From assembly GCA_951406725.2 (NCBI GenBank), contig OX597841.1:16678001-16742000 (forward strand): a DNA stretch of 64,000 nucleotides, given 5' to 3'. Under the pieces are notes generated by a model. It worked only from the letters and a program-made list of their open reading frames with translations. It was not told the origin of the DNA and did not search any database. The DNA is from Octopus vulgaris. Its lineage: Eukaryota. The translations under genes were made by a program, and so were the position numbers. Positions 16,430-17,904 of the stretch are shown piece after piece (the first letter of the stretch is position 1; every line of letters starts with the position of its first letter).

Positions 16430-16892
16430 AATATATTTGTATAAATATATATATTCATATACATAAATATATTTGTGTGTATATATATATATATATACAT
16501 ACTTTTATTTATACATTTATATATATATAGCCATGCAATAATTACCTCTATATCTTCGGGAAAACATCTTACAGCAAAATTTTCTTCCAGAACGATCGAC
16601 GATAAATATGATTCGGGGCAATATAACTTAATTTAACGTTGACTTAACTAAATAACGGACTGCTTCCACGTATTTATTGGAAAATAAAATATACTTGTTT
16701 TTCCCCGTACCGGGCACGAAATATGTTTCCGAAAATGGACAGCACTCTGGGAAATACAGGATAGCATTCATGCAATCTTGGGATCTGTGTTCGTTATTTT
16801 TTTTATAATTATTTCTGTTTTTTTTTGGTTTTTGTAAGCCATTTAAGGAAACACACAAAAGCCGTTCGATTCACTTCAACATTTAAGTTTAA

Positions 16893-16944
16893 TTTGTCGA
16901 AAATATTTTCGTCGCTTTAAGACCGCGACCTGTTCACTGACAAA
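16893..16944 (-). ncRNA. Minimal type I hammerhead, G3-C8 variant core (copy 1)
   Basis: Minus: TTTGTCA GTGAACA G GTCGC ggtcttaaa GCGAC GAAA ATAT TT TCGACAAA; stem II perfect, one extra C in stem I. Confidence 0.65.
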
Positions 16945-16952
16945 AATCCCTG

Positions 16953-17016
<64 letters not shown>

Positions 17017-17082
17017 AGGTGTTTATAAGCCATTTAAGAAACACACAAATGCCGTTTGATTCACTTCAATATTTAAGTTTAA

Positions 17083-17133
17083 TTTGTCAAAATATTTTCG
17101 TCGCTTTAAGACCGCCACCTGTTCACTGACAAA
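17083..17133 (-). ncRNA. Minimal type I hammerhead, G3-C8 variant core (copy 2)
   Basis: Minus: TTTGTCA GTGAACA G GTGGC ggtcttaaa GCGAC GAAA ATAT T T TGACAAA; 7-bp stem I perfect, one stem II mismatch. Confidence 0.65.
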
Positions 17134-17141
17134 AATCCATG

Positions 17142-17183
<42 letters not shown>

Positions 17184-17274
17184 TATATATATATATATAT
17201 ATATTGGAAGGTGTTTATAAGCCATTTAAGAAACACACAAAGGCCGTTTGATTCACTTCAATATTTAAGTTTAA

Positions 17275-17325
17275 TTTGTGAAAATATTTTCGTTGCTTTA
17301 AGACCGTGACCTGTTCACTGACAAA
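17275..17325 (-). ncRNA. Minimal type I hammerhead, G3-C8 variant core (copy 3, more decayed)
   Basis: Core GTGAACA and GAAAATATTT retained; stems I and II carry substitutions. Confidence 0.5.
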
Positions 17326-17904
17326 GTGACGAAAATATTTTGACAAATTAAACTTAAATGTTGAAGTGAATCGAACGGCTTTTGTGCGTTTCTTAAATGG
17401 CTTATAAACACCTTCCACGCTGCAAATGTTTTCGTTTCAGCACACGATCTCAGATCAGGTCACTTGCTATGCGAGTACATCTCCGTAATTTCTGGTTTTT
17501 GGCTTTCGAATATTTGACCTAACTATTGTGGGTGTACCTCTTGTGTGTATGTGTTCTCGTGTTTGTATATTATCCACACATATACATACACACAGACACA
17601 TTCACACACACACACGCGCACTTACAAGGATACGTCACACATACATACACATATATCTGTATCAGCCGTATATAAGCGACATGTTTCTAATCTCGTAACA
17701 TGAAATTTTATATATAGAGCAGAGTAAACACATAAATGTGAAACAAGGTGGATAAAAGAGTACTCAAATACCAGGGGTAGAGTAATATGCTTTATTTATT
17801 CCCGTTTGACGGACAGTTTTGTTAACGAAGGAGAACGTGAAACTCCGAGTAACAGGTTTTGTTGAATTTCTGCTGATTTAAATAAAGTATATTTCTTTCT
17901 TTCT

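Follow-up and report, generated by a model that had tools for sequence, protein, structure and literature searches.

Hammerhead-like stubs in the octopus window

The window, i.e. the whole 64-kb stretch of Octopus vulgaris DNA that we analyzed, contains an 18-letter core motif three times, each time on the minus strand and with 0-1 mismatches, where shuffling gives an expectation of 0.03. The copies are spaced by 189 and 192 bp and both G3 and C8 were located in each of them (Table 1), in agreement with an earlier note on this DNA that had described three minus-strand copies with these letters about 190 bp apart. The motif was parsed as a 7-bp stem I, the core letters G3 U4 G5 A6 A7 C8 A9, an extra G after A9, a 5-bp stem II closed by G10.1-C11.1, GAAA, a 6-letter palindrome replacing stem III and a UUU triplet, and the architecture proposed in the note, including the palindrome and an NUH triplet, thus holds. 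It had also remarked that no single copy is perfect. All three are indeed damaged and the damage differs copy by copy, with three stem changes in one, an extra C in another and a stem II mismatch in the third. Local fold z-scores were −1.16, −1.08 and +0.77, as compared to −3.74 for an intact copy taken from an element with its ORF.

Table 1. Features of the repeat locus (positions are those of the window)
Feature	Position	Strand	Details
Core motif matches	16925-16942, 17114-17131, 17306-17323	minus	pattern search of window
pLTR stub 1	17205-17325	minus	G3 17318, C8 17313, predicted cut 17282/17281; stem II and stem I damaged
pLTR stub 2	17013-17143	minus	G3 17126, C8 17121, predicted cut 17090/17089; one stem II mismatch
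pLTR stub 3	16827-16954	minus	G3 16937, C8 16932, predicted cut 16901/16900; extra C, stem I 3' strand
Inverted 5'-truncated fourth copy	17325-17489	plus	hammerhead 3' half, ORF start codon 17397-17399, ~60-bp tail to distal 3' end
(TA)n tract between stubs 3 and 2	16954-17012		sequence
(TA)n tract between stubs 2 and 1	17143-17204		sequence
Possible degenerate target-site duplication, left	16811-16828		resembles 17488-17502; by eye, no statistics
Possible degenerate target-site duplication, right	17488-17502		by eye

The inverted arm is an addition to the earlier description of the locus. Stubs 1 and 2 have two derived sites and the 3' end in common, from which we infer that they are a local duplicate. 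Rfam reported no hammerhead at the locus and none on the intact copy either, and patterns based on CUGANGA also miss the family, as had been predicted. Elsewhere in the window (15484-15554, minus strand) a weak match to Rfam Hammerhead_HH9 was seen, at 33 bits against a cut-off of 52 and with a non-canonical core. The local repeats are truncated, decayed stubs of the pseudo-LTR (pLTR) of a Penelope-like element (PLE). The three copies are probably inert as ribozymes, and useful cutting by them is highly improbable.

An autonomous Penelope-like parent element

Some copies have a longer upstream sequence in common, and this led to the ORF of the parent element, a 1,025-codon open frame with RT motifs visible in the translation. 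A GIY-YIG endonuclease lies C-terminally (Pfam match at residues 890-980, E 1.6e-5, over the cut-off), and Pfam RVT_1 gave no match to the parent RT. In 28/30 of the best ORF-bearing loci an intact G3-C8 motif follows about 1 kb after the stop codon. At the other end, 56 nt separate the predicted cut from the downstream ATG, and the first codons of the ORF lie in the tail. Copies that reach the 5' end of the ORF identify the stub as the pLTR. At one locus (L452) a motif and the ATG are followed by the ORF, which contains one stop and a single frameshift, and by a second motif 4,261 nt from the first. An inverted copy precedes the full layout, and this order matches the PLE layout in the part of PMC8557442 that was compared. 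The features by which an EN+ PLE is recognized are thereby present: an RT fused to GIY-YIG, the pLTR-ORF-pLTR partial tandem of L452, and an inverted 5'-truncated copy with a one-sided tail (17/27 loci, the two 3'-end peaks described below, and the L298 layout). Of the two origins that the earlier note had offered, PLE pseudo-LTR or retrozyme, the first is thus borne out by an autonomous parent, and the second is not, as 0/27 sampled loci are tandem and the local copies are damaged.

The parent's C-x3-C-x2-C linker fits the CX2-5CxxC motif described for Neptune and Nematis. An origin from Naiad was rejected because the parent endonuclease is C-terminal, and a 781-codon GIY-YIG family was rejected as parent because of its different 3' end and U3-A8 motif. 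A distance of about 125 residues between RT motifs A and B looks long among PLEs whose endonuclease is C-terminal. Such a spacing was seen in the L298 ORF and is common to the homologs P0001, P0010 and P0048. In other respects, element type and insertion pattern are ordinary.

The G3/C8 letters are family-wide. A 19-letter G3+C8 pattern gave 6,073 exact matches in the genome and the control 0, while 203 matches had another letter at position 3 in the same context, and 339 matches of a 20-letter version deviated at position 8. The repeat is also present in sequencing-run contigs under four organism labels, and in the four runs compared as assembled contigs (leaving out the small-share runs X20-X24) all core variants were below 3%. 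The repeat also occurs in run X19, which may be an RNA run. The 3' ends of 359 copies formed two peaks within the ORF start, separated by about 60 nt, and 40/114 copies unselected on the core begin 16-25 nt before G3. Copies are frequently found inside (TA)n and frequently paired with an inverted copy. Among 27 position-ordered loci we counted 17 inverted pairs, 10 single copies and 0 same-strand tandems, so the same-strand tandem in the window is an exception.

At a few places (L002, L013, L015 and L017 on contig C28) we observed arrays of up to 16 same-strand stubs, with a unit of about 167-190 bp that includes the (TA)n flank and several with an identical 12-letter spacer; the array units stop at the PLE's own 3' site. 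Inverted pairs with one G8 and one C8 arm were seen at L045, L048, L141, L154 and L157, and such mixed arms may reflect two template RNAs in one insertion.

The pair between positions 3 and 8 in related elements

Intact copies have most of what defines a hammerhead, namely U4 G5 A6, A9, G12 A13 A14, A15.1-U16.1, H17 and stems I and II. The canonical C3 and G8 letters are replaced by G3 and C8, and these retain a Watson-Crick pair between positions 3 and 8, as do relatives with C-G, U-A and A-U. The closest comparison comes from a sister family in the same genome (family C), which carries C3-G8 at the equivalent place. Its 1,311-codon frame is 56% identical to the parent at the protein level and is sister to it on a quick RT tree (support 99). 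The stem differences between the two are compensatory: one pair of stem II goes from G-C to A-U, and stem I has two such changes. An older family (family B) shares the two stems with the G3-C8 family, as well as a portion of the 3' region.

To look at the pair across relatives we used a descriptor blind to positions 3, 7 and 8, composed after some of the target sequences were known. It gave 10 matches among 20 PLE 3' regions, and 10/10 were Watson-Crick at 3-8 (U-A 5, C-G 3, A-U 1, G-C 1); 0 matches were obtained on the antisense strands and 0 in 200 shuffled sets. In metagenome sequence (78 loci), 16/17 distinct matches were Watson-Crick (14 C-G and 2 U-A, with 1 A·G). An 11-row alignment (A3) contains five pair types in the 3-8 column and no unpaired row, with one U·G counted as paired; the rows were chosen for stem pairing, which makes the stem pairing circular and the 3-8 column alone informative. 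When the non-canonical lineages were taken alone, 6/7 were Watson-Crick (p 0.001 at 1 in 4, for lineages that are not fully independent). The palindrome and the NUH site are likewise kept in elements with proteins only 27-35% identical to the parent. Taken together, the blind matches, the C3-G8 of the sister family and the related U3-A8 and A3-U8 motifs show that G3-C8 is a natural covariation and not a chance one, and the stem covariation that the earlier note had asked about is present in family C.

Further hammerhead-like motifs were noted along the way. Family C itself has an inverted-pair stub in the window (13882-14162), with a hammerhead at about 13999-14045, C3 at 14005, a C3-G8 core and C at position 9; this family is very young, with 99% identical copies, 1,311-codon frames and tandem arrays 4,587 bp apart. 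An abundant PLE with a 781-codon and an upstream frame (L218:4765 and loci L195-L217) has a minimal hammerhead with U3-A8, situated some 70 nt from the 3' end, in which loop II differs among subfamilies and the core is constant. A3-U8 hammerhead-like motifs lie behind PLE ORFs in the L208 3' region and at L352:2809; the former, a by-eye reading, has a stem II of just 2-3 bp and failed the descriptor. By eye, the 3' regions of L222, L225, L209 and L203 carry degenerate hammerhead-like motifs with U4C-/A13C-type cores and a palindromic loop III. Canonical C3-G8 minimal hammerheads of other families in the same genome were seen at L052:531, L112:271 and L316:3727.

Minimal type I hammerheads have been described in the pLTRs of metazoan PLEs, including a natural U3-A8 form in Schistosoma Cercyon (Cervera and de la Peña 2014, PMC4209133). 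In the parts of that paper compared, these resemble the octopus motif in their pLTR position, the extra nucleotide between 9 and 10.1, the G10.1-C11.1 pair and the palindromic loop III. They too occur mostly solo or on opposite strands, with a predicted action as dimers and low activity. The octopus motif differs from those types by G3-C8 instead of C3-G8 or U3-A8, a 4-nt palindromic insert, a 7-bp stem I and the UUU triplet, and G3-C8 is not named in the text and supplement parts compared. Natural core variants with 3-8 covariation were reported by Perreault et al. (2011, PMC3088659), with U3-A8 as the only such pair in the section compared; natural covariation at 3/8 is thus found in both, and the octopus pair is G3-C8. 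A full-text literature search that included the reviews PMC6155905 and PMC6765202, in the text parts compared, returned G3-C8 as a laboratory variant only (PMC3884650) and no natural example.

Proposed cleavage by the intact motif and alternative readings

Our preferred reading, which we hold to be rather probable, is that the repeats are stubs of the pLTR of an abundant PLE, that the pLTR contains a minimal type I hammerhead with C3-G8 swapped to G3-C8, and that the intact motif still self-cleaves slowly. In a PLE hammerhead, a laboratory C3G/G8C double mutant partly restored cleavage (PMC11167929, in the part compared). Some activity of the swapped core is expected from this partial rescue (PMC11167929; PMC8495972, as far as these were compared), and by this analogy cutting by the intact motif is somewhat favored. 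The laboratory mutant, engineered in the Anolis Poseidon element PAc, has the same core that is natural in octopus. According to the compared parts of PMC11167929, PAc is alike also in a pLTR overlapping the beginning of the ORF, an optional tail that arises from two internal RT start sites, and AT-rich targets; the octopus RT differs by the Cys-rich linker before the endonuclease, and the cut is 26 nt after the ATG in PAc but, as predicted, 56 nt before it in the octopus element.

We propose that the RT-GIY-YIG protein would start reverse transcription at two sites on uncleaved RNA, and that this would leave stubs retaining the whole motif. Two motifs, one per pLTR or from two RNAs, would pair through the 6-nt palindrome and form helix III. 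The natural dimer partner of a motif would be that of the other pLTR, 4.3 kb downstream, or of a separate RNA. G3 would pair with C8 and hold the 2'-OH of residue 8 in place. The cut, after U17, would set free a 4.3-kb RNA of unit length that begins 56 nt before the ATG. What weighs against this reading is that in the lowest-energy fold G3 can also wobble with U17, extending stem I. Help from a protein during cleavage is plausible by analogy with the anole element, and cleavage is probably not needed for every transposition event.

A broader version of this reading is more tentative, and we would not expect it to hold in full: that G3-C8 is active and that one PLE clade uses all four Watson-Crick 3-8 pairs, passing via unpaired G3·G8 or U3·G8 states that are tolerated as cutting is not always needed. 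Among the first 100 of the 339 copies with another letter at position 8 there were 43 G, 39 U and 18 A. G3·G8 is found in about 146 copies, as compared to about 20 with the matching position-3 transversion (10 in the first 100 of 203), a roughly 7-fold excess, and three old copies (L305, L308 and L456) have G3·G8 together with the ORF. This excess and the three ORF-bearing copies indicate that unpaired cores were transposed; for G3·G8 as an ancestral intermediate, the ORF tree gave no root placement. In 48 aligned copies of the older family B, a sample partly picked on G8, we counted 31 U3·G8, 4 U3-A8, 4 C3·A8, 2 C3-G8 and 7 other. A9 is a conserved letter of the hammerhead core. Of the 3,352 matches of family C, the first 100 have C9 in 96 and A9 in 3. 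Elements with doubtful cores thus spread well, in agreement with the finding that hammerhead mutants of PAc had no effect on insertion in vitro (Frangieh et al. 2024, PMC11167929, in the part compared).

The same lineages also speak for the most serious alternative, unlikely in our view, that the motif is a non-catalytic relic, derived from a hammerhead but with no useful cutting, whose fold is kept for protein binding or 5' UTR structure or hitchhikes with a successful element. G3·G8, U3·G8 and A9C lineages have all spread, and most stubs retain the whole motif, which implies uncleaved templates. Copies starting at the predicted cut are also without a clear excess. No peak was seen there among the 114 unselected copies. 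Raw counts were 58 at the cut vs. 28-55 nearby (five pattern counts, 30 loci inspected each). After filtering, which removed internal deletions, local duplications and joins through stem I microhomology, about 42±8 remained vs. 21-33 at four neighboring positions, and with reads placed on contigs no loose-end peak at the cut was present among the best-supported rows listed. The excess is at most a weak hint of cleavage.

Between old and young lineages of the G3-C8 family, whose ORF ends are about 86% identical, 0/42 core and stem sites differ, as compared to 4/8 in loop II (p 3e-4) and 16/195 in the flanks (p 0.04-0.06). The excess conservation of core and stems that the earlier note had looked for is therefore evident against loop II and marginal against the flanks, the latter being in favor of a relic. 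Among the copies aligned 75/75 have G3/C8, a query-biased sample; owing to this bias, and to variation that is mostly CpG decay, the figure was not used as evidence of selection. What speaks against a relic is the 3-8 pair itself, a tertiary pair important for the active fold, which is Watson-Crick in every blind match and of four types, together with the palindrome and NUH site retained in elements as distant as those described above.

Two further possibilities are very unlikely: that the three local copies act as a functional tandem unit which cleaves as a dimer, or that they belong to a non-LTR retrozyme moving via circular RNA. The three same-strand units about 190 bp apart and the longer arrays (unit about 167 bp) at a few loci are what such a unit would look like, and retrozymes, which are short hammerhead-bearing units related to PLE pLTRs, have been proposed to derive from these (bioRxiv 10.64898/2026.07.22.740005, in the part compared). 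In that source retrozymes are tandem units with an intact hammerhead each, whereas the octopus family consists mainly of single or inverted stubs of an autonomous element, and tandem units with intact hammerheads are not its usual layout. None of the position-ordered loci is a same-strand tandem, the array units contain the (TA)n flank and end at the PLE 3' site, stems are broken in all three local copies and the motif is elsewhere joined to an RT gene. The suggestion in the earlier note that the tandem layout suits dimeric cleavage was accordingly not supported at this locus. A chance likeness, without descent from a hammerhead, in a satellite or MITE-like repeat is a reading for which one could cite inverted arms mimicking terminal inverted repeats and the missing Rfam match; it was rejected as next to impossible, as the motif is continuous with the PLE ORF on both sides in ORF-bearing loci and in the L452 layout, and canonical hammerheads occupy the same place in related elements, family C among them.

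The octopus family supplies a natural covariation for the tertiary 3-8 pair of the hammerhead, for which U3-A8 was the sole natural report found previously in the literature compared, and it shows a family with over 6,000 copies escaping standard searches. Within one genome and clade there is a natural series of G-C, C-G with A9C, U·G, G·G, U-A and A-U, and this series bears on whether Penelope elements need their hammerhead at all. If G3-C8 is active and all four pairs are in use, 3-8 would be a freely covarying position in nature, censuses based on CUGANGA would overlook thousands of hammerheads in each genome, and a new scan would be called for in elements described as lacking them, e.g. 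Naiads.
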